A DNA stretch of 64,000 nucleotides, from assembly GCF_013315695.1 (NCBI RefSeq), contig NZ_CP054353.1; one strand, 5' to 3'. This stretch comes from Escherichia coli. Its GTDB lineage: Bacteria > Pseudomonadota > Gammaproteobacteria > Enterobacterales > Enterobacteriaceae. Each line of letters opens with the position of its first letter. Position 1 is the stretch's first letter. Shown here one piece after another: positions 39,971 to 51,299 of the stretch. The notes below the pieces were generated by a model. That model worked only from the letters and a program-made list of their open reading frames with translations. It did no database searches and was not told the DNA's origin. The position numbers were made by a program, and so were the translations under genes.

Positions 39971-40222
39971 TTATTCTTCTGAAAAAGCAGAAAAGCCAGC
40001 TTTTATTCCGATCTCTTTCAATACCTGTAATGAAGTGACAAACTCACCGTCGCGCAAGATAAATCCGTCCGTCACTCGGGCATCCACAAAATTAATTAAC
40101 GCAGCCCCATTTTTTTGCAAACACACAATGCGGTAATGACTAACAATATTTCCATTTTCAACGCACACAGCATAGAGGCCATCTTCACAAAAAATTTTAC
40201 GCAGTTCTTCGATGTTCATCAT
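39971..40222 (-). CDS. rem: hypothetical prophage protein Rem
   Basis: 83-aa ORF directly upstream of hokD-relE-relB as in Qin. Confidence 0.6.
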   Translation of the reverse strand: MMNIEELRKIFCEDGLYAVCVENGNIVSHYRIVCLQKNGAALINFVDARVTDGFILRDGEFVTSLQVLKEIGIKAGFSAFSEE

Positions 40223-40665: not shown

Positions 40666-40953
40666 TCAGAGAATGCGTTTGACCGCCTCGCTATATACTT
40701 CCGAGCGTTCTCTTTTCCCAACAGAAATCACGAAAACGACAACTTTCTCGTCTATAACCTGGTATACAAGGCGATAGCCTGAAGACCGGAGCTTAATCTT
40801 GTAACAATCAGGCATACCACGGAGCTTGTTTGCTTCAATCCGGGGTGACTCAAGTACTTCAACCAGCTTCTTTTTCAACTGTTCACGTACCGTCGAGCCC
40901 AGCTTTCGCCATTCCTTTAGTGCCCGCTCGTCAAAATCCAGAAAATACGCCAT
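40666..40953 (-). CDS. relE: RelE mRNA-interferase toxin
   Basis: 95 aa; MAYFLDFDERALKEWRKLGSTVREQLKKKLVEV... Confidence 0.9.
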   Translation of the reverse strand: MAYFLDFDERALKEWRKLGSTVREQLKKKLVEVLESPRIEANKLRGMPDCYKIKLRSSGYRLVYQVIDEKVVVFVISVGKRERSEVYSEAVKRIL

Positions 40954-41192
40954 CAGAGTTCATCCAGCGTCACACGTACTGGCTTAGGATTACGAAGCCG
41001 TTCTTTCACTATCTCCACAAGTTCAGCATCTTCATCACTCAGGAGTGTCTGTTTGAACGGCAAGCGTTCATTGTCAGCGATATACTCGAGCATGAGACGA
41101 AGCGCTTCAGAAGGAGTTACACCCATTTTTTCAAGCGCGGCGTAAGAACGCGCTTTAAGTTCATCGTCAATACGCAGGTTAATGCTACCCAT
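40953..41192 (-). CDS. relB: RelB antitoxin
   Basis: 79 aa; MGSINLRIDDELKARSYA...; overlaps relE start. Confidence 0.9.
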   Translation of the reverse strand: MGSINLRIDDELKARSYAALEKMGVTPSEALRLMLEYIADNERLPFKQTLLSDEDAELVEIVKERLRNPKPVRVTLDEL

Positions 41193-41216
41193 GTCTTACA
41201 CCTCTTGTAATTACAA

Positions 41217-41522
41217 ATGTCATTACAAGTATCGCACTACAACATGCTTAGGGCAAGTCACGAAGGAAGTCAGAAAGTAGTCGTAAGAACGGTGATCACT
41301 GTCCGCTTTGTGCCAGGAGCAGCCATTGCTAAGTCCATCCTGTATTGTGCAGGTCAGCTCGTTTTTAAAGAGTCCGGCCATCATCTTACTGGTACAGACA
41401 CCATATACTTTGTGACGGTCAGGCTACATATGCACAACTCAACTTATTCATCTATTTTTTGCTTTAGCATGTCAGTGTTGCTTTCTCGTCGGCGGGTGAG
41501 CGGTGACCTGACCTGTCGATAA
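41217..41522 (+). CDS. ydfV: hypothetical prophage protein (YdfV-like)
   Basis: 101-aa ORF divergent from relB; name by synteny only. Confidence 0.45.
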   Translation: MSLQVSHYNMLRASHEGSQKVVVRTVITVRFVPGAAIAKSILYCAGQLVFKESGHHLTGTDTIYFVTVRLHMHNSTYSSIFCFSMSVLLSRRRVSGDLTCR

Positions 41523-41724
41523 AGGAACGTAACACGTTTTATGCAACACCCGCATGCGGCAGAAAATTATTGCCGAACGTTTACCCCTGTCAACAAGCTT
41601 TACTTTCTGAGGCGCGCCAGCCCGCGAGGAAAACAATCTGAACATCAAACAATTAATGACACAAGAAATACGATTAAAGATTTTTTTGTGCATGCCGATA
41701 GTGCTTTTTTAAAAGGAGAAATCT

Positions 41725-42057
41725 ATGTCTGTCACAATTCAGGGAAATACCTCAACCGTTATTTCAAACAACTCCGCCCCGGAAGGAACATCAGAAATAG
41801 CCAAAATCACAAGACAAATTCAGGTGCTGACTGAAAAGCTTGGGAAAATCTCATCGGAAGAGGGGATGACGACACAGCAGAAAAAAGAAATGGCTGCATT
41901 GGTACAGAAGCAAATTGAAAGCCTCTGGGCTCAACTGGAGCAGTTGTTAAGGCAGCAGGCAGAGAAAAAGAATGAAGACGCGACAGTTCAGCCTGATAAA
42001 AAAGAAGAGAAAAAAGACGATACAAATACCGCTGGCACCATTGATATTTACGTCTAA
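41725..42057 (+). CDS. flxA: FlxA
   Basis: 110 aa; MSVTIQGNTSTVISNNSAPEGTSEIAKITRQIQVLTEKL... Confidence 0.85.
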   Translation: MSVTIQGNTSTVISNNSAPEGTSEIAKITRQIQVLTEKLGKISSEEGMTTQQKKEMAALVQKQIESLWAQLEQLLRQQAEKKNEDATVQPDKKEEKKDDTNTAGTIDIYV

Positions 42058-42071
42058 GTGACAGCCGTATT

Positions 42072-42095
42072 GTGGCCCTCATCGGGCCACTTTTC
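42072..42095 (+). terminator. rho-independent terminator after flxA
   Basis: gtggccc tcatc gggccac followed by TTTT. Confidence 0.55.
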
Positions 42096-42493
42096 GCCAT
42101 CAGCCTTTTCTTTAAAGACATATTATCTTTGTATCATTTCTGATAGTTAACATTACAAGATATAAGTAATGGACGCACTCCCAATTAGTCTATTTAAATC
42201 GCCACGAGTTTAACTGACAACCCATGATCAATTATGAATTGCAACTATTTCTGTAGTCACTTTTGTGGGGACAGTCCACAAAACTGCCAACTTCCGCTTC
42301 TTGCTCTTAGCGGACATTAGCATAGGCTATTTACCATAACGCCTCATTACGCGCACCGCCCAGACTGACTCAGCGCGTTTCTGGCATATCCCCGGTAAAA
42401 CAAGTAACAAACCACCCGAAAATGAACACCAGAAACGCGACTTAAGAATCTACCCTATGAATGGATATGCACTCAACCGAATCGATCTTGGTT

Positions 42494-43807
42494 TCAATCT
42501 TTTTTATCGGGATCAGGCTTCTTTTTAGGTAACTTCGGGGGCTTAACTTGCTGATGACTTTGCGTTCGGCGCGTAAGCCAGGGATGGTCAGCTTTAGGTT
42601 TAACATAGTATTTTGAGCGTAAATCAATACGGGCATTATCCACTCGTTCATGGACACTCTTTTCATCATCCAGTGGTATAGGCTCCGGGCCATCAACATA
42701 CTTTTCCCAGCCCAGCGCTTTCCCGTCATACAGAACGTTAATTTCACCGTCAAAGTTCTCGCATACAGTAACAACCGAATGCCTAAGTCGATATCCCCGG
42801 CCCTCACTGCGTACCTGAAACGCACTGCTTTTGTACTGGAAAGTGAGATTTTTAGACAGAACGCGCTTCGCCTGTAGGCTGAAGATATAACCCAGTTCCT
42901 CTTCAGAATGGTGCACATCAAGATGAGCATTATCAGTAGTACGAGGCGACGTAGCGAACCGGTTGTTATAGGCTTCAATAAAGGTCGGCAACCATGCATT
43001 TGCTGTTTCAATATCACTGATATTCTGAAGCCGCATTTCTTTGACCAGCCTGTCCTGTAGTGTCTGATTGGCGCGCTCTACCCGCCCTTTTGCCTGCGGG
43101 CTGTTGGCATGGATTGGCTCGATGCCCAGTGTCTTTATCGCACGAGTGAACTGGGTCAGCTCACCTTCCCGCTCTGGGTTATTTACCCTGAATATACTGT
43201 GTCTATCAGAGTAGAGAGCGAGCGGTACGCCATGATCATTAAGGTAACCCCGGAGGGTTTCCATGTAAGCCCGGGTTGTTTCAGCAGGCACAAAACGCAA
43301 CGCCATCAACGCACTGGTGGCATCATCAATGAAAACGATCAGTGTACATCTGGGGCCTCGATTTTCAAACCAGTCATGAGGTGAGCCATCAATCTGGATC
43401 AGTTCACCGTAAGATGGTCGTCGCATGCGGCGTTGATATATACGGGCAATTTTACGACGGCGTTCACGCCATAACCCCTCTTCTATCATCCACTTTCTGA
43501 GAGTTTCAACGGATAAAGATAAACCGTGTATCTCGCGCAATTTTTCGCACGCAAACGTAGGTCCAAAATCAGCGTAACGGCCTTTGAGGAGTGAAATTAC
43601 TGTTGCTCTGAATTCAGTAGAAAAGGAATTATTAGGACGCTTTCCACGTCGGTGGGAAACCAGAGCAGAAGGCCCTTCATTTCTATACCGTTGCACCAGA
43701 CGTTTAACCTGCCGAATAGAAATGCCAATGCGTGCCGCAGCTTGTTCCTGAATAATCTGAAGTCGGTGGAGTTCCTTATGACTCATCGTAACAGTCTCTT
43801 TGATCAT
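42494..43807 (-). CDS. DDE integrase-core (rve-like) transposase/integrase-like protein
   Basis: 437 aa; N-terminal HTH-like region then catalytic core (...LIQIDGSPHDWF...VFIDDATS...LYSDRHSIF...QAKGRVERANQTLQDRL...); no terminal inverted repeats found by eye. Confidence 0.6.
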   Translation of the reverse strand: MIKETVTMSHKELHRLQIIQEQAAARIGISIRQVKRLVQRYRNEGPSALVSHRRGKRPNNSFSTEFRATVISLLKGRYADFGPTFACEKLREIHGLSLSVETLRKWMIEEGLWRERRRKIARIYQRRMRRPSYGELIQIDGSPHDWFENRGPRCTLIVFIDDATSALMALRFVPAETTRAYMETLRGYLNDHGVPLALYSDRHSIFRVNNPEREGELTQFTRAIKTLGIEPIHANSPQAKGRVERANQTLQDRLVKEMRLQNISDIETANAWLPTFIEAYNNRFATSPRTTDNAHLDVHHSEEELGYIFSLQAKRVLSKNLTFQYKSSAFQVRSEGRGYRLRHSVVTVCENFDGEINVLYDGKALGWEKYVDGPEPIPLDDEKSVHERVDNARIDLRSKYYVKPKADHPWLTRRTQSHQQVKPPKLPKKKPDPDKKD

Positions 43808-44141
43808 GAAAAATCCCCCAGAGAATTGTCTGGGGACATTTTAGAATGGTTCAAAGGGGACATTACAGCTTGGTGTTAACAATAGCCTGCTTCTCCGTGC
43901 CTTTCGGCACGTAAGAGGCTAACCTACATGTGTCTAGCATGAAATTGGCCTCAGATTAATGTTAAGCGTCTTGCAGGACGCGTAATGTTAACTGGGGCTT
44001 TTCTCTATCTGCCGTTGGTGTCCATGCCCGAGGCAGATAGCCTCAAGCACCCGCAGTCATTCTACTTAACTAAGATTTCCCCGCAAACCGTTTTTGTCCA
44101 GCACAGTAAATATCCAACTAAACCAATGGAGTTCGCTGTAT

Positions 44142-44360
44142 TTACCGCCAGTATTCAATGCACATGACCGCCATGAACACCCCTAAAAAAAGGGCATTTA
44201 TATATCCAAATATTAATATCAAAACATCAACTTTTTCCATATACCTTGCTGTGAAGATGATGGGCATACATGATGCGAACAACCAGAACGCAACAAACAA
44301 AAACTGCAATGCGTTTTTCATTATTCCTCCTACAATCAATGTGCAATTACATTTAAACAC
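44142..44360 (-). CDS. hypothetical small membrane protein (2 TM)
   Basis: 72-aa ORF, very hydrophobic; AT-rich context; could be spurious. Confidence 0.25.
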   Translation of the reverse strand: MFKCNCTLIVGGIMKNALQFLFVAFWLFASCMPIIFTARYMEKVDVLILIFGYINALFLGVFMAVMCIEYWR

Positions 44361-44575
44361 ACCTCAATTTGGCCGGACATATAAATATCTAAACCAGAAA
44401 AAATCACTTACATAGCGTTACAAACTCTTTAGTCTAAAGGTTCATCGTAAAACATTCCCCATACTTATCAGTCCGTTCCGCGCCAGGTAGCTCATTGCCT
44501 TATCTGGCAACCTGTAATCAGGTTTCCGCTTTTTCAGTTGGCTGGTCGTTTAACCGACATAGTTAATCCATTAAT

Positions 44576-44863
44576 CTAGTTGCCGGATGTTGGTGGATTT
44601 TCGCGTTTTAGTTGTTCATAAAAGTGCACAGCTTTAACCAGTTCTTCTGATGTAACTGGGACTGGTGAGGCAGTGAATAAGGCCTGAATTTGATAGTTCG
44701 GCCTGTCGTTACAATCCTCTTTTTTCGGTACATATTTCCAGTCACCAGACCACTACTTCCCCTGAAAGTCCGTAACGCCTTTTTTTACGTAGCGATATCG
44801 CCATGCCACTGGTTTTGCTTGCCCCGCCGTTTCATGCCCTTCCTGATAATTAATCTCGCTCAT
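44576..44863 (-). pseudogene. small early-region gene interrupted by an in-frame TAG
   Basis: MSEINYQEGHETAGQAKPVAWRYRYVKKGVTDFQGK - TAG at 44753..44755 - WSGDWKYVPKKEDCNDRPNYQIQALFTASPVPVTSEELVKAVHFYEQLKRENPPTSGN. Confidence 0.45.
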
Positions 44864-45473
44864 TCATCGCCCCACTCATCACAATATGCTTCGACCGGAG
44901 TTTTTCCCGCTTCATAGTCATCACGCTAGGATTCGACATCAGCAGCACTTCCACCGCGTAACTCACCATAGTCCATTAATAGTTCATCCCGCTCTTCAAA
45001 ACTGATGTTATATTTAGCTGAACAAAAATCAGCCACTTTGTTCTTCCTCATCGTCTTTTATTTCGTGGTATGAGTAATTGCAGTAGTTAAAGAAAATTTC
45101 TTATGCTCCGTCATGAATTTCCTCAGGTGTTGCGTCATCGTCCACTTCGAATACATCCTCAAAATCTCCACCAGCTATTCCCGTTTCAATAATAATTTTG
45201 AACTTTCGCATTTCACTACCGCCCTTTCGGGCGGCCTCCTGATGTTCTGAGGGTGCAGAAATCCATCCGGTTAAGGATTAAATTTTATTTACAGAACTGA
45301 ATTTAATTATTCAGATATACGTATCTGTAGCCTTACGAATCTACTCACTGGATGCCTCTTTCATAAAAATAATCCAGTGGGTTTTATCGTTTTTTCCCTG
45401 TTCGTTGACAGATAACAGGTTTTCTGTCTGTCAGTGCCAGAATCTGGCTTACCGGTATTTGCGTTTCATTCCA

Positions 45474-45830
45474 TTAAAAAATCAGAACGCCGTGCGGCCT
45501 CAACACCCGAAAGGCTTCTTTAAATCTCTGTCGCGAATCATCACGCCAGGCATCTTTATTCAGCCGTCCATATTTCTTTCCCATCCAGGCGTTATCACCA
45601 ACACTCTCAAGATGCGGAGGGTCTAATACAACCATCGAAAAAGATGCGTCTGCAAATGATAATGCACGAAAATCTGCGATAATGTCAGGGCTGATAATCA
45701 AGCGTCTCCCATTGCGTAATGTGTATCCTTCTTTTCTGATATCGCTGAATATCGCCCGTTCGTCAGACTTATCGAACCAGAACATGCGGCTGCCACAGCA
45801 CATATCAAGAATGGTTGCCGGTGCACTCAC
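45474..45830 (-). CDS. putative DNA methyltransferase, unusually short (possibly truncated)
   Basis: 118 aa; SAM-binding-like LDMCCGSRMF and catalytic-like VVLDPPH motifs; start overlaps upstream gene stop. Confidence 0.45.
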   Translation of the reverse strand: MSAPATILDMCCGSRMFWFDKSDERAIFSDIRKEGYTLRNGRRLIISPDIIADFRALSFADASFSMVVLDPPHLESVGDNAWMGKKYGRLNKDAWRDDSRQRFKEAFRVLRPHGVLIF

Positions 45831-46249
45831 TGCGCCACGTCCTGAAAATTACCCTGATAGAAAGCCAGTATGCGCTGCATAACTTCGCTCTTCCGGCACT
45901 CGCGACAGATTATGTTTAGGCGACTGTCGTAGCGACGTATTTCTCCGTCAGGTGATGACCAGATAAGGTCCGGATCAACCACAGCAGGTTTCTTCACCTT
46001 TGCCCTCGAGAGTTTTTTGCGGGCGTTTTGCCAGTCCTTACGCGCCTGTTCAGAGGGGAATAACCCGTAGCCGGAGTTGTATACATCGCCACTGGCTACC
46101 AGCTCTCTGGCAAGAACGCTCATCAGATATCTAGTCGCACCTGTTTTAGCTTCCAGTTGCCGTAACGTCTCACGGCCGCTCTGGCGCACGAGTTCCACCA
46201 CCTGCCATTTAATTTTTTCCCGCTCTTCTTGTGTAAAAACTTTTGCCAC
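45827..46249 (-). CDS. hypothetical phage replication-region protein
   Basis: 140-aa ORF translationally coupled between the O-like gene and the methyltransferase. Confidence 0.4.
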   Translation of the reverse strand: MAKVFTQEEREKIKWQVVELVRQSGRETLRQLEAKTGATRYLMSVLARELVASGDVYNSGYGLFPSEQARKDWQNARKKLSRAKVKKPAVVDPDLIWSSPDGEIRRYDSRLNIICRECRKSEVMQRILAFYQGNFQDVAQ

Positions 46250-46289
46250 AAGTCCCCCTTAAAATTACCTCATGACCTGAAATCAACAC

Positions 46290-47309
46290 TTATCCTCTGA
46301 AACCAGGCGGAATTTCTGTATCCGGTTCAGAAATATGATTAACACAACGCTGTACAGGTGAACGTCCCAGGCGGATGACCAGTTCGTCCCATTTTTCGCG
46401 GAGCTTTGACGGGCTCATGATGTTTTTTACCCAGAATGGATCTCGCTGAACCCGACCAAACATTTCGCAAATTTGTCTGTGGCTTCTGCCATCCAGCATC
46501 CGCATTGTGCGCACGTCATTGGCCCAGGCAGTCCAGTTAGGCTCTTTTGGTCGCATGATCTCGCCATCATCACTGGCTGCCTGTTCGTAGAGACCCACGA
46601 TCCGCCCCCAGATCCACTGCGCACACGCCAAATCCTCCCTGCTACCCCACTGGCGTTTTTTCGCACTAAACACAACCGCGTCGGAGTTCCGGGTTAAAAA
46701 ATCCTGTTCAGTCGTCTGCGGGTCCGGTTGCGAAGCTTCCGGACGAAAAGTGTTTTTATTCTCTGTAGTAATCTCTGTTGTATTCTCTGTAAGATCATCA
46801 GGCCATTTTGACCCGATGACATTGGGTCGTTTTGAACCAATGGAGCGTTTCATTTTGACCTCTTCCATCGTGTCATTTTGACCTGATGGAGCGGCGCATT
46901 TTGAACCGATGGATTCGCTCAATTTGCCACCATCTAAAAGCTCGCTCCCATAGTTGATCGTGTAGAAATTGGTCATATCGCGCTTTGATTTATTGAGCTT
47001 TTCACAACGCAAAAGCCCCAGCGTTTTCAGACTTGCAAACGCGCGCTTTAACGTTGACTCTGACCAGAATGGGAACTGTTCCAGCCATTGTTCCGTTGTG
47101 TTATAAATCCAGCGAACACCATCACATTCCATGCCGGAGTTGGTATCTCTCAACCAGTAGTGCAGTTGTTGCAAAACAATGGCTTCGTTTAAGCCAATTT
47201 TCATTGCCAGCTGCGTGTTTATAACCAGTGGGCGTTCAGCAAAAAGAAGGCTCATAATTCCATCCAGCTTTTTGTTGGTATTGCTGTCGATACGCAAGTT
47301 TGAAAGCAA
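46290..47309 (-). CDS. replication initiation (O-like/replisome organizer) protein
   Basis: 339 aa; position immediately downstream of the cro-like/cII-position genes; acidic low-complexity linker; start uncertain (overlaps upstream ORF). Confidence 0.5.
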   Translation of the reverse strand: MLSNLRIDSNTNKKLDGIMSLLFAERPLVINTQLAMKIGLNEAIVLQQLHYWLRDTNSGMECDGVRWIYNTTEQWLEQFPFWSESTLKRAFASLKTLGLLRCEKLNKSKRDMTNFYTINYGSELLDGGKLSESIGSKCAAPSGQNDTMEEVKMKRSIGSKRPNVIGSKWPDDLTENTTEITTENKNTFRPEASQPDPQTTEQDFLTRNSDAVVFSAKKRQWGSREDLACAQWIWGRIVGLYEQAASDDGEIMRPKEPNWTAWANDVRTMRMLDGRSHRQICEMFGRVQRDPFWVKNIMSPSKLREKWDELVIRLGRSPVQRCVNHISEPDTEIPPGFRG

Positions 47310-47757
47310 TTGCTTTTTCTATAAGTTCGTCAGTTTCACGATCCACTACGGCAGGATCAGCAAAAAGCAGTCCGGACTCCACCACATCGCCATATTCTTT
47401 GTTTAACCCGGCGATCATGCACGTGATGCTTTTTCCGTCAGTAATTTCACGATACAACCTGAAATCATTAATCCGGATAGCCTCCATAATTGCAGGCACT
47501 AGCGCCGTGAACTTTTCACGCTTATCCCTAGTGTCGATAGCCTTCCAGCGTTCAAATATCTTCACTCGATTAACGCCAAGCGCTCGCTGATCAATCGCGC
47601 CACCTTCATATGTGACACGCTGAACATCGATGTTCGGGCGCTCTTTCAAAGCCCAGAATGCTTCAGTGATTAATATCGTCGCCTGCTCCTGTGTCATTCC
47701 TGGTCGACATATCCAGGCATCCAGAGCCTCACGAGCCTGTTCAGGAGTGATTTTCAT
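47236..47757 (-). CDS. hypothetical protein at the cII position
   Basis: 173-aa ORF directly downstream of dicC. Confidence 0.4.
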   Translation of the reverse strand: MKITPEQAREALDAWICRPGMTQEQATILITEAFWALKERPNIDVQRVTYEGGAIDQRALGVNRVKIFERWKAIDTRDKREKFTALVPAIMEAIRINDFRLYREITDGKSITCMIAGLNKEYGDVVESGLLFADPAVVDRETDELIEKAIAFKLAYRQQYQQKAGWNYEPSFC

Positions 47758-47971
47758 TGTTCAACCGCCCCGCCCGCTTCGTCTTACGATATTCATCATA
47801 AACTTTGGGATCATACTGAAGCTCCCCGCCAGATGCCTCCTGTAGACGCATCGCGCGACCTTCGGGAACTAAATCCCCTTTCCAGCTATAAAGCGAAGCC
47901 AAACGAATACCTGCTGCTTGTGCAAGTTTTGTTTTTGAACCGAAATACAAAAGAGCGTCAGTTTTAAGCAT
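47741..47971 (-). CDS. dicC: Cro-like repressor DicC
   Basis: 76 aa; MLKTDALLYFGSKTKLAQAAGIRLASLYSWKGD...; divergent from dicA. Confidence 0.85.
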   Translation of the reverse strand: MLKTDALLYFGSKTKLAQAAGIRLASLYSWKGDLVPEGRAMRLQEASGGELQYDPKVYDEYRKTKRAGRLNNENHS

Positions 47972-47987
47972 TTAAAACACCTTTATT

Positions 47988-48051
47988 GTTAGTCATAACT
48001 AACAAGATAGATGTTAACAAAAACATAGTCAATACGATTTAGCATTAGCTA
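47988..48051. promoter_or_regulatory. dicA/dicC divergent promoter-operator region with palindromic operator-like sites
   Basis: GTTAGTCATAACTAAC and TAGCATTAGCTA palindromes in the 83-bp intergenic region. Confidence 0.5.
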
Positions 48052-48054
48052 ACT

Positions 48055-48462
48055 ATGGAAACAAAAAATTTAACTATCGGCGAACGCATCAGGTATCGTC
48101 GGAAAAACCTCAAACACACCCAAAGGTCTCTTGCTAAAGCCCTGAAAATCTCCCATGTGTCTGTATCACAATGGGAACGGGGTGATAGTGAACCTACAGG
48201 GAAGAACCTTTTTGCCCTCAGCAAAGTATTGCAATGCTCACCAACATGGATTCTATTTGGCGATGAAGACAAGCAACCAACACCACCTGTTGAGAAGCCA
48301 GTTGCCTTATCCCCCAAAGAACTAGAGCTCCTTGAGCTGTTTAATGCACTGCCAGAATCAGAACAGGATACCCAGCTCGCCGAAATGCGAGCTCGAGTAA
48401 AAAACTTCAATAAACTCTTTGAAGAATTACTAAAAGCCCGTCAGCGGACAAATAAAAGATAA
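48055..48462 (+). CDS. dicA: repressor DicA (cI-like, HTH_XRE)
   Basis: 135 aa; METKNLTIGERIRYRRKNLKHTQRSLAKALKISHVSVSQWERGD... Confidence 0.9.
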   Translation: METKNLTIGERIRYRRKNLKHTQRSLAKALKISHVSVSQWERGDSEPTGKNLFALSKVLQCSPTWILFGDEDKQPTPPVEKPVALSPKELELLELFNALPESEQDTQLAEMRARVKNFNKLFEELLKARQRTNKR

Positions 48463-48497
48463 CATCATCAATGAGTTATCTTTTACCACATCAATTA

Positions 48498-48550
48498 TGT
48501 TAGCTATAGCATACAAAATCACTTGACCGATATGTTAGTCATGGCTAATC
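48498..48550. promoter_or_regulatory. second pair of operator-like palindromes upstream of ydfA/dicB operon
   Basis: TTAGCTATAGCATA and TTAGTCATGGCTAA, same half-sites as the dicA/dicC intergenic sites. Confidence 0.45.
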
Positions 48551-48628
48551 TTGTTTGCATCAACACACCGCACGGTGTTCTCAGCAAACAGTTCCGCTAC
48601 CCCAGCGTTAAGGGGAAATGAGGTCAGC

Positions 48629-48784
48629 ATGGATACTATCGATCTTGGCAACAACGAATCTCTGGTGTACGGCGTGTTTCCAAACCAGGACGGCACGTTC
48701 ACCGCAATGACGTATACCAAAAGCAAAACGTTTAAAACCGAAAATGGTGCCCGTCGCTGGCTGGAAAGAAACTCAGGTGAGTGA
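48629..48784 (+). CDS. ydfA: small protein YdfA (51 aa)
   Basis: MDTIDLGNNESLVYGVFPNQDGTFTAMTYTKSKTFKTENGARRWLERNSGE. Confidence 0.75.
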   Translation: MDTIDLGNNESLVYGVFPNQDGTFTAMTYTKSKTFKTENGARRWLERNSGE

Positions 48785-48785
48785 T

Positions 48786-48914
48786 ATGGATTTCGACACA
48801 ATCATGGAAAAGGCTTACGAAGAATACTTCGAAGGCCTTGCCGAAGGCGAAGAAGCTCTCAGCTTCAGTGAGTTTAAACAGGCGCTTTCCAGTTCGGCAA
48901 AATCTAACGGCTGA
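48786..48914 (+). CDS. ydfB: small protein YdfB (42 aa)
   Basis: MDFDTIMEKAYEEYFEGLAEGEEALSFSEFKQALSSSAKSNG; below ORF-track cutoff. Confidence 0.65.
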   Translation: MDFDTIMEKAYEEYFEGLAEGEEALSFSEFKQALSSSAKSNG

Positions 48915-48943
48915 TAAGCGAAACAGCACCGCGAGGAATCAGT

Positions 48944-49162
48944 ATGCAGAAACGAGAACCCGTCATCATCGCGCCAGACTATACCGATGATGAACTTTAT
49001 GAGTGGATGCGCCAGAAAATTAATGCAGCGCAGGATCTGAAATGGGCTAATGAAGCCAGGGCTAAGCAGGCTGAAAATCTGTTCTCTCTGGAGCAGGATA
49101 TCACCAGGCTGGAAAAAGCAGCGGCATTAAGCATTGCCAGAATGATTACATACCCGCGTTAA
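48944..49162 (+). CDS. ydfC: small protein YdfC (72 aa)
   Basis: MQKREPVIIAPDYTDDELYEWMRQKINAAQDLKWANEARAKQ... Confidence 0.75.
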   Translation: MQKREPVIIAPDYTDDELYEWMRQKINAAQDLKWANEARAKQAENLFSLEQDITRLEKAAALSIARMITYPR

Positions 49163-49502
49163 TAGCTAACCAACGAAGCTAAGGTTGGTAATTAAGGAGT
49201 TCTCCACGGGTGAGGTGGAGTGCGTGCGCCGGACACGGGTGAGCATCCGGCACTGACAGTTTACTGAAAGGATATTTCCATGAAAAGTCAGACCATAACG
49301 CGAAAGCGCACGGCGAGGTAGCTGGTTCATAGATAGCCTGTCGTTAAATTTTCGTCGACCGTGCGCTTCCGGTTGTGGCAACCCGCGAAATGGCGCGGCG
49401 GTAAGTATGGCGGGGTTATTCCTTCCCCGTTGAGGACACCGGGTTGTCAGGTTGACCATACGCTTAAGTGACAACCCCGCTGCAACGCCCTCTGTTATCA
49501 AT

Positions 49503-49560
49503 TTTCTGGTGACGTTTGGCGGTATCAGTTTTACTCCGTGACTGCTCTGCCGCCCTTTTT
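49503..49560 (+). ncRNA. dicF: DicF small RNA (cell-division inhibitor, ftsZ antisense)
   Basis: TTTCTGGTGACGTTTGGCGGTATCAGTTTTACTCCGTGACTGCTCTGCCGCCCTTTTT: hairpin plus U-run, matches DicF as remembered. Confidence 0.8.
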
Positions 49561-49729
49561 AAAGTGAATTTTGTGATGTGGTGAATGCGGCTGAGCGCAC
49601 GCGGAACAGTTAAAACCAAAAACAGTGTTATGGGTGGATTCTCTGTATCCGGCGTTAATTGTTAACTGGTTAACGTCACCTGGAGGCACCAGGCACTGCA
49701 TCACAAAATTCATTGTTGAGGACGCGATA

Positions 49730-49918
49730 ATGAAAACGTTATTACCAAACGTTAATACGTCTGAAGGTTGTTTTGAAATTGGTGTCACTATCAGTAACCC
49801 AGTATTTACTGAAGATGCCATTAACAAGAGAAAACAAGAACGGGAGCTATTAAATAAAATATGCATTGTTTCAATGCTGGCTCGTTTACGTCTGATGCCA
49901 AAAGGATGTGCACAATGA
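49730..49918 (+). CDS. dicB: cell-division inhibitor DicB (62 aa)
   Basis: MKTLLPNVNTSEGCFEIGVTISNPVFTEDAINKRKQERELLNKICIVSMLARLRLMPKGCAQ. Confidence 0.85.
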   Translation: MKTLLPNVNTSEGCFEIGVTISNPVFTEDAINKRKQERELLNKICIVSMLARLRLMPKGCAQ

Positions 49919-50106
49919 ATTCAGCATTTGTGCTTGTTCTGACAGTTTTTCTTGTTTCCGGAGAGCCAGTTGATATTGCAGTCAGTGTTCACAGGACAAT
50001 GCAGGAGTGTATGACTGCAGCAACCGAACAGAAAATTCCCGGTAACTGTTACCCGGTCGATAAAGTTATTCACCAGGATAATATCGAAATCCCGGCAGGT
50101 CTTTAA
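49915..50106 (+). CDS. ydfD: small membrane protein YdfD (63 aa)
   Basis: MNSAFVLVLTVFLVSGEPVDIAVSVHRTMQECMTAATEQKIPGNCYP... Confidence 0.75.
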   Translation: MNSAFVLVLTVFLVSGEPVDIAVSVHRTMQECMTAATEQKIPGNCYPVDKVIHQDNIEIPAGL

Positions 50107-50198
50107 AACAGTTCCGTAATAAATATCCGGTTTCATTCTTATATGCCAACAATGGCAGGGATTTGTTCATCCTTAAATCTGTCATGAGGTTAAAACAA

Positions 50199-51299
50199 AT
50201 GAGTAAAGTCTTTATTTGCGCCGCTATTCCTGACGAACTGGCAACAAGGGAAGAAGGCGCTGTGGCTGTAGCCACAGCCATTGAAGCTGGCGACGAACGC
50301 CGTGCTCGAGCAAAATTTCACTGGCAATTCCTGGAACATTATCCGGCTGCTCAGGACTGCGCTTATAAATTTATTGTCTGCGAGGATAAACCTGGCATAC
50401 CCCGCCCTGCCCTCGATTCATGGGATGCTGAATATATGCAGGAAAACCGCTGGGATGAGGAGTCTGCTTCTTTTGTCCCGGTTGAGACTGAATCCGATCC
50501 GATGAACGTCACTTTTGACAAGCTGGCCCCTGAAGTACAGAACGCTGTCATGGTTAAGTTCGACACATGTGAAAACATCACCGTTGATATGGTTATTAGC
50601 GCACAGGAATTGTTGCAGGAAGACATGGCAACATTCGACGGACATATCGTTGAAGCGTTGATGAAAATGCCAGAAGTTAACGCCATGTATCCGGAGCTTA
50701 AGCTGCATGCCATCGGGTGGGTTAAGCATAAATGTAAGCCTGGTGCCAAATGGCCCGAAATTCAGGCAGAGATGCGCATCTGGAAAAAACGTCGCGAAGG
50801 TGAACGTAAGGAAACCGGAAAATACACGTCTGTTATTGATCTCGCCCGCGCCAGAACCAATCAACAGCACAGTGAAAATTCAACAGGAAAAATCAGCCCG
50901 GTCATTGCTGCCATTCATCGCGAATACAAGCAGACATGGAAAACACTGGATGACGAACTGGCCTACGCTCTCTGGCCTGGTGATGTGGATGCCGGAAACA
51001 TTGACGGCAGCATCCATCGCTGGGCAAAAAATGAAGTTATCGACAACGACCGCGAAGACTGGAAGCGTATCTCGGCATCAATGCGCAAACAGCCTGATGC
51101 CCTTCGCTACGACCGCCAAACTATTTTTGGCCTTGTCCGTGAGCGTCCGATCGACATTCACAAAGATCCCGTAGCACTGAACAAATATATCTGCGAATAC
51201 CTGACGACAAAGGGCGTGTTTGAGAATGAAGAAACAGACCTGGGCACTGTTGATGTTCTCCAGTCATCAGAAACACAAACTGATGCAGTGGAAACTGAG
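50199..51299 (+). pseudogene. ydfE: YdfE-like protein, reading frame runs into IS2
   Basis: frame from MSKVFICAAIPDELATREEG... continues to ...TDAVETE, then the last 8 codons (YFQTSVIT) are IS2 sequence. Confidence 0.6.

Follow-up and report, generated by a model that had tools for sequence, protein, structure and literature searches.

The nearest known counterparts of the dic locus are the immunity regions of phages P22 and lambda. The P22 immC region, like the dic locus, holds a divergent repressor/cro pair with 18-bp operators; in the annotated P22 record, OR1-3 lie between cro and c2, and OL1-3 together with the promoter PL lie just downstream of c2. Lambda resembles dic in that its repressor gene is flanked on one side by an OR-type region that also serves cro and on the other by an OL/PL-type promoter directed away from the gene. 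The logic is also the same: the repressor represses both promoters and activates its own gene, which is in turn repressed by the Cro-like protein. Unlike dic, lambda carries rexAB between cI and OL; its operators are 17 bp long and differ in sequence, and lambda CI is cleaved with the help of RecA and loops OL to OR, neither property being known for DicA. DicA has no S24 peptidase domain with the Ala-Gly cleavage site of LexA/CI-type, SOS-cleavable repressors. Functionally, it belongs with the antirepressor-controlled lambdoid repressors of the Gifsy type, which are likewise not SOS-cleavable and are inactivated by an antirepressor (Rem in the case of DicA; PMC10448788), a likeness that concerns the mode of inactivation and not the operator layout.

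To date, several studies have addressed the dic locus itself. According to later papers that cite it, Béjar (1988) proposed a lambdoid layout, and both intergenic regions have been described, with reference to Béjar 1988 and Yun 2012, as containing operators that resemble those at lambda PR and PL (Ragunathan 2023, J Bacteriol; PMC10448788). In the same study, deletion of dicA caused a 22-fold derepression of dicBp, the promoter of the dicB operon, and deletion of dicC was without effect; dicBp was found to be bistable and similar to lambda PL, the Qin antirepressor Rem inactivated DicA, and DicA, which is without an Ala-Gly bond, was not induced by mitomycin C (PMC10448788). On the other side of dicA, DicA binds the operator Oc in vivo, where it represses dicC and activates dicA, and a single A>C change abolishes binding (Yun 2012; PMC3441716). 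DicA did not bind Oa (alone) or Om in that in vivo assay, for which the data were not shown, and the dicA promoter was described as "not obvious" (PMC3441716). Reg-Seq recovered the DicA site at dicC, left the dicA promoter undetected, and observed toxicity of Oc by titration. When additional Oc copies titrate DicA, cells die or grow as filaments. A 2024 DicC ChIP-seq study placed one inferred DicC site on either side of dicA, with the palindromic motif TT(A/C/T)G...C(G/A/T)AA (PMC11430063), and YjdC also binds the dic locus; the main text of a 2025 ChIP compendium (Nat Commun) mentions neither DicA nor DicC. An earlier note on this DNA had proposed a comparison with published DicA/DicC footprints. 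The comparison is favorable for Oc as a DicA site in vivo and for DicC on both sides of dicA, but the 2020 Reg-Seq study rates the DicA site for dicB as "low evidence, location unknown".

The window considered here, a 64-kb stretch of DNA, contains the immunity region of the E. coli Qin prophage. Positions 47700-49200 are 99.5-99.7% identical to E. coli genomes in which dicC, dicA, ydfA, ydfB, and ydfC are annotated, and a gap-free alignment to K-12 MG1655 (3144 nt, 15 mismatches, 99.5%) carries the Qin annotation onto the window. The two intergenic regions, 47972-48054 and 48463-48628, do not differ from MG1655 Qin at any base. The names that the earlier note had given to dicC, dicA, and ydfA are correct, and the genes of the locus are as follows.

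47741-47971, minus strand: dicC, Cro-like repressor gene (76 aa; ORF list; Pfam P22_Cro, E=1.7e-11; annotated as dicC in E. coli genomes)
48055-48462, plus strand: dicA, gene of a C2/CI-like repressor without a cleavage domain (135 aa; Pfam HTH_3, E=1.3e-16; Pfam Phage_CI_repr, E=7.5e-6)
48629-48784, plus strand: ydfA (K-12 MG1655 alignment; YdfA matches Pfam DUF1391)
48786-48914, plus strand: ydfB (K-12 MG1655 alignment)
48944-49162, plus strand: ydfC (K-12 MG1655 alignment)
49504-49555, plus strand: dicF (Rfam DicF match, 76.7 bits)
49730-49918, plus strand: dicB (K-12 MG1655 alignment)
49915-50106, plus strand: ydfD (K-12 MG1655 alignment)
48629-50106, plus strand: the controlled operon ydfA-ydfB-ydfC-dicF-dicB-ydfD (K-12 annotation by alignment)

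By ORF list, annotation, and Pfam, dicA and dicC are a divergently transcribed pair of a C2/CI-like helix-turn-helix (HTH) repressor gene and a Cro-like gene. Residues 8-70 of DicA are 58.7% identical to P22 C2, from which the 135-aa DicA differs in having no C-terminal S24 cleavage domain (a Pfam search of DicA gave no match to Peptidase_S24), and DicA is 100% identical to the "cI" of phage PhiR42_1. An Rfam scan of 47500-50500 returned only DicF and a sub-threshold match to the STnc100 sRNA family at 49553-49762 (34.4 bits, where the gathering score is 47; E = 4e-5), which begins directly after DicF and runs into the start of dicB. To the left of the immunity region, a 4.8-kb segment (42679-47477) is absent from K-12 MG1655; the K-12 match resumes on either side of it (40820-42678 at 100% and 47478-50621 at 99.5%). 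This segment carries an O-like replication ORF (46290-47309, minus strand), and a 173-aa YdaT-family ORF annotated as "cII" (47236-47757, minus strand) spans its right-hand junction with the K-12-matching DNA. The complete genome of phage PhiR42_1 (from ECOR13) runs colinear, at 99.5%, with the insert from 45055 on and with the immunity region to its right. Decay has gone less far in the Qin-like element of the window than in that of K-12.

The earlier note had claimed that the same operator-like palindromes stand on both sides of dicA. This is borne out: an 18-bp pseudo-palindrome, TGTTAG-YYATRR-CTAACA (core TTAG-N6-CTAA), occurs in four copies in the 64 kb, all of them within the two intergenic regions that flank dicA and two in each. 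One of the two forms that had been named, TTAGTCAT-NN-CTAA, is present in both regions exactly as claimed, at 47989-48002 (TTAGTCATAACTAA) and 48535-48548 (TTAGTCATGGCTAA), and these are its sole two sites in the 64 kb. The other, TAGC-N4-GCTA, is exact at 48040-48051, but the second region has TAGCTATAGCAT at 48500-48511, which does not end in GCTA and contains the 8-bp palindrome GCTATAGC. The division into two types does not hold, as the palindromes are variants of a single motif with different central hexamers: TTAG[TCATAA]CTAA, TTAG[CATTAG]CTAA, TTAG[CTATAG]CATA, and TTAG[TCATGG]CTAA. The TT(A/C/T)G...C(G/A/T)AA motif from DicC ChIP-seq matches TTAG-N6-CTAA.

A half-site search of the kind the earlier note had suggested found TTAG-N6-CTAA in the 64 kb only next to dicA, at three positions (47989, 48039, and 48535). 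The full 18-mer TGTTAG-N6-CTAACA matches perfectly at 47987-48004; 48498-48515 and 48533-48550 each deviate from it at two positions, and nothing else in the 64 kb comes within two mismatches. The motif definitions, on which the comparative evidence does not depend, were set after inspection of the sequence, so that the chance figures serve only as a guide: TTAGTCAT-NN-CTAA is expected 0.25 times at ≤1 mismatch, and its observed count was reached in 0 of 100 shuffles; TTAG-N6-CTAA occurs 0.58 times per 64 kb in shuffles, or about 0.002 times per 250 bp of dicA-flanking intergenic DNA; and the 18-mer at ≤2 mismatches would give about two matches per 64 kb by chance alone. A weight matrix trained on the homologous sites of relatives, whose scores at the four window sites are therefore not independent of the training set, ranked these sites first to fourth (Oc, 26.9; the 48533 site, 25.0; Oa at 48037, 16.7; the 48498 site, 16.6) and revealed no additional targets in the window, where the fifth-best score was 6.4. 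The best score in shuffled sequence was 16.45, barely below Oa and the 48498 site; since the matrix was also trained on homologues, support for these two comes from their position and conservation and not from their score.

Two further candidates were considered. A second operator class, TGTT-N6-AACA (48012-48025 and 48552-48565; three matches in the window against 1.6 expected), was rejected because its downstream copy is not conserved, relatives having TATT and TGCT variants. A lone exact half-site, ATGACTAACA, the reverse complement of TGTTAGTCAT, lies at 40136-40145 without a partner half-site, in apparent coding DNA of the minus strand, and is most likely due to chance.

The divergent region between dicC and dicA, the equivalent of OR, contains the following features.

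47987-48004, no strand: Oc operator, TGTTAGTCATAACTAACA (exact 18-mer match; 8 of 9 pairs palindromic)
48004-48032, minus strand: dicC promoter dicCp, -35 TTGACT (48032-48027), 17-bp spacer, -10 TATCTT (48009-48004) (promoter scan; 9 of 12 consensus positions)
48012-48029, no strand: weak middle position corresponding to Om, TGTTAACAAAAACATAGT (25 bp from both Oc and Oa; in the dicCp spacer)
48037-48054, no strand: Oa operator, ATTTAGCATTAGCTAACT, abutting the dicA ATG (TTAG-N6-CTAA core; matrix 16.7; at -18 in nearly all homologues)

The sequence of Oc is that of the Oc cloned by Yun 2012, and its published 20-bp form (TTGTTAGTCATAACTAACAA, 47986-48005) overlaps the -10 and the start site of dicCp. 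The placement of dicCp at 48032-48004 by promoter scan, from which it follows that Oc covers about -8 to +12 of dicC, agrees with the promoter and the 5'RACE start in Yun 2012 (PMC3441716), and the Reg-Seq annotation of -8..+12 of dicC translates, via the -10 placement made here, to 47986-48005. Oc and Oa are clear, and the spacing is even about the middle position (25 + 25 bp), where only one half-site, the left, resembles the motif; this position has a matrix score of -6.7, is invariant in close relatives, and was equated with Om in this analysis. In P22, the operator OR3 (ATTTAAGATGACTTAACT) stands directly against the c2 ATG, the position that Oa (ATTTAGCATTAGCTAACT) has at the dicA ATG, and the two operators are near-identical in sequence. 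By positional homology with P22 OR3/PRM, where the PRM -10 is TAAGAT and transcription starts 4 nt before the ATG, a PRM-like dicA promoter can be placed tentatively within Oa, with -10 TAGCAT (48040-48045) and a start at A48051. Such a promoter would explain the invariant center of Oa, as opposed to the variable centers of the other operators.

Downstream of dicA, as in lambdoid immunity regions of the P22 type, a second operator cluster with the same consensus lies over a PL-type promoter.

48453-48485, plus strand: hairpin across the dicA stop codon, with an 11-bp perfect stem (TAAAAGATAAC ... GTTATCTTTTA) (inverted repeat; RNA fold -11.6 kcal/mol, z = -3.8)
48498-48515, no strand: upstream dicBp operator, TGTTAGCTATAGCATACA (equivalent of P22 OL2; degenerate right half; two mismatches to the 18-mer; matrix 16.6)
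48523-48551, plus strand: dicBp, -35 TTGACC (48523-48528), 17-bp spacer, -10 TAATCT (48546-48551) (read from the sequence)
48533-48550, no strand: core dicBp operator, TGTTAGTCATGGCTAATC (equivalent of P22 OL1; two mismatches to the 18-mer; matrix 25.0)

The upstream site ends 7 bp before the dicBp -35, and the core site, which is 88% identical to Oc over 16 nt, takes up the dicBp spacer and reaches into the -10. With only three of six consensus positions matched by its -10, dicBp was missed by the promoter scan; its -35 is invariant in 43 relatives, and the promoter aligns with the annotated P22 PL (cacTTGACC...TAAATT...cATCAGC), which would put its transcription start at about 48558-48559. 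The arrangement OL2-7nt-TTGACC-4nt-OL1 of P22, with 35 bp from start to start, reproduces the gaps around dicBp exactly, with the -10 in the right half of OL1. The half-sites themselves, both read from sequence, differ (TTAG-N6-CTAA in dic, TTAAG-N4-CTTAA in P22), the middle operator of dic is degenerate, and the dic operon carries ydfABC-dicF-dicB-ydfD. A third downstream operator at 48474-48491, by analogy with P22 OL3, was rejected: its matrix score is -8.7 and it corresponds to the 3' arm of the hairpin at the end of dicA. By sequence, there are thus two convincing operators per region, compared with three per region in the literature.

The leader of the dicB operon (48559-48628) contains a hairpin, ACACCGCACGGTGT, followed by CCCCAGCGTTAAGGGG before the ydfA ribosome-binding site, and its predicted RNA fold is no better than that of shuffled sequences (z = 0.33). 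By eye only, no boxA-like CGCTCTTTA was recognized in this leader, nor was a gene-24/N-type antiterminator or a boxA nut site recognized downstream of dicBp, where the first gene is ydfA. The leader is conserved across prophages of different immunity specificity (Qin, PPompW, and phiES15), which places the mosaic boundary directly after the dicBp -10.

The hairpin at 48453-48485 is likely the dicA terminator, a candidate without a clean U-tract after the stem. Its proximity, and the general ability of palindromes to form hairpins, could suggest that the palindromes act as RNA structures in termination or processing and not as protein-binding DNA; in some relatives, moreover, the hairpin after the repressor gene is built of operator-like half-sites (TTAGCTAAC..GTTAGCTA, then a T-run, in L075-L082). 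We regard this explanation as having a negligible chance of being right: the 48533 site lies upstream of the probable dicBp start and Oc straddles the dicC start, arms of 4-6 bp around a 6-nt center would make only weak stems, and the YYATRR pattern kept by center variation is not a base-pairing pattern.

The conservation of the four sites was assessed in 80 IMG/VR loci recovered by a DicA search (63-100% protein identity), together with the phage records PPompW, phiES15, BUCT709, and PhiR42_1. Upstream of the repressor gene, nearly all homologues have two sites, of the Oc type at -68 and of the Oa type at -18 relative to its start. After the repressor stop a second pair follows, spaced by 33-36 bp: its first member immediately precedes a TTGAC-type -35, and the other lies between the -35 and the -10. 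The counterpart of the 48498 site is conserved within +36 to +43 of the dicA stop, and that of the 48533 site lies at +70 to +77 in most homologues and at +110 to +129 in those with a longer intergenic region. Among 43 distinct close relatives, the half-site columns have a mean entropy of 0.01-0.11, compared with 0.42-0.59 for the centers. Center variation in these relatives is confined to positions 7, 8, 11, and 12 of the 18-mer and consists of transitions only, giving YYATRR.

This pattern bears on the proposal that the similarity between the regions is inherited sequence without present function, a relic of prophage decay or duplication. Qin is cryptic in K-12, and about two 18-mer matches at ≤2 mismatches per 64 kb are expected by chance alone, but this proposal is very improbable: half-sites are invariant in the 43 relatives as centers and flanking bases vary, the positions of the sites relative to the -35, the -10, and the ATG are fixed across homologues of 63-100% identity, and phage PhiR42_1, deposited as a complete genome, has the same immunity region. 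Furthermore, repression and titration phenotypes have been obtained by experiment, and published genetics already contradict the reading as a functionless relic.

The centers of the three strong operators (47993-47998, 48504-48509, and 48539-48544, compared across L006-L059) are highly polymorphic in the 43 near-identical relatives, with the central AT invariant, and the polymorphisms do not track the two-clade split of the dicA coding sequence. They may reflect tuning of affinity via non-contacted bases or exchange between operators. A separate observation concerns phiES15 (L003), a Cronobacter phage whose DicA homologue is 52% identical: palindromes of apparently opposite arrangement, CTAAC-N4-GTTAG (e.g., ACTAACTTTTGTTAGT), occur on both sides of its repressor gene (1950-1997 and 2440-2500), and operator geometry may have changed within the DicA family.

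Operator specificity was further compared with the recognition region of the repressor. Repressors with the HTH sequence KISHVSVSQWE are associated with (N)GTTAG...CTAAC half-sites, three repressors with (H/G/Q)LSDVS with ATTAG...CTAAT, and the PPompW type, KVAHVTISQWE, with CTTAG...CTAAG and A/T-rich centers. Of the four alternative HTH classes, three show a change in both the base preceding TTAG and the center composition along with the HTH; the fourth (BUCT709) keeps GTTAG, and the center composition alone changes. In every class with downstream sites found, the half-site change occurs on either side of the repressor gene, and no downstream sites were found in one (H/G/Q)LSDVS locus (L077). 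This covariation, the strongest evidence available from sequence only, supports the view that the same protein or proteins read both operator sets. The earlier note had proposed one repressor for the divergent promoters and for ydfA-dicF-dicB-ydfD: shared control is supported, both by the published model and by HTH covariation, but two proteins, DicA and DicC, take part.

We therefore interpret the palindromes as operators of the Qin immunity switch, of the P22 immC type and read by DicA and DicC, with a probability of roughly 90%. Published experiments have demonstrated that DicA binds Oc in vivo, that repression of dicBp depends on DicA, and that DicC occupies both flanks of dicA, and the motif is unique to the dicA flanks within the window, conserved, covariant with the HTH, and identical to P22 in geometry. 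Direct occupancy of 48498-48515 and 48533-48550 by DicA is predicted from these comparisons; no footprint or gel shift of DicA on these sites was found in the accessible literature, Béjar 1988 being known through citing papers. An alternative is that DicC, or a host factor such as YjdC or H-NS/Cnu, is the main or sole user of the downstream sites, with DicA repressing dicBp indirectly or from an unrecognized site. The DicC ChIP-seq sites on both sides of dicA (PMC11430063), the low-evidence rating of the dicB site in Reg-Seq 2020, YjdC binding at the dic locus, and the failure of DicA to bind Oa and Om in one assay (PMC3441716) would fit this alternative. It is nonetheless unlikely, as the 48533 site is 88% identical over 16 nt to the proven DicA site Oc, on either side of dicA the half-site covaries with the HTH of DicA, and no other matrix match lies near dicBp.

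Under the preferred reading, as an immunity switch shared by DicA and DicC, the C2/CI-like DicA and the Cro-like DicC would act as dimeric helix-turn-helix proteins recognizing TGTTAG-YYATRR-CTAACA. DicA at Oc, over the dicCp -10 and start site, would block dicC and stimulate dicA; occupying Oc and the two dicBp sites, it would exclude RNA polymerase from dicCp and dicBp and stimulate the weak PRM-like dicA promoter, and its presence on the downstream sites would silence ydfABC-dicF-dicB-ydfD. DicC would shut off dicA by way of the same motif, probably with a preference for Oa like that of Cro for OR3; Oa would cover the PRM-like dicA promoter together with the start codon, making it the likely DicC site for dicA repression. 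We infer that affinity falls in the order Oc, then the 48533 site, then the 48498 site and Oa, with Om far weaker.

Shared operators and a single control system are the already-published model, lambdoid logic having been described since 1988, and no new biology is claimed. What is added is base-resolution coordinates for the two downstream sites ("location unknown" in the 2020 study), comparative evidence that operator specificity covaries with the repressor on both sides of dicA, and a putative PRM-like dicA promoter inside Oa. Two bolder and rather doubtful extensions are that DicA loops Oc to the 48498/48533 set across the 0.5-kb dicA gene (546 bp from Oc to the core dicBp site) and, separately, that selection on YYATRR tunes affinity. 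The distance from Oc to the downstream sites ranges from about 545 to 604 bp among relatives, and a fixed, phased loop is thus unsupported. The transition-only YYATRR polymorphism in otherwise near-identical prophages could represent selection tuning affinity via non-contacted bases. A DicA loop, for its part, could tighten the silencing of dicB and dicF and set DicA autoregulation, like the OL-OR loop of lambda CI, and might explain why Oa and Om showed no DicA binding in isolation.
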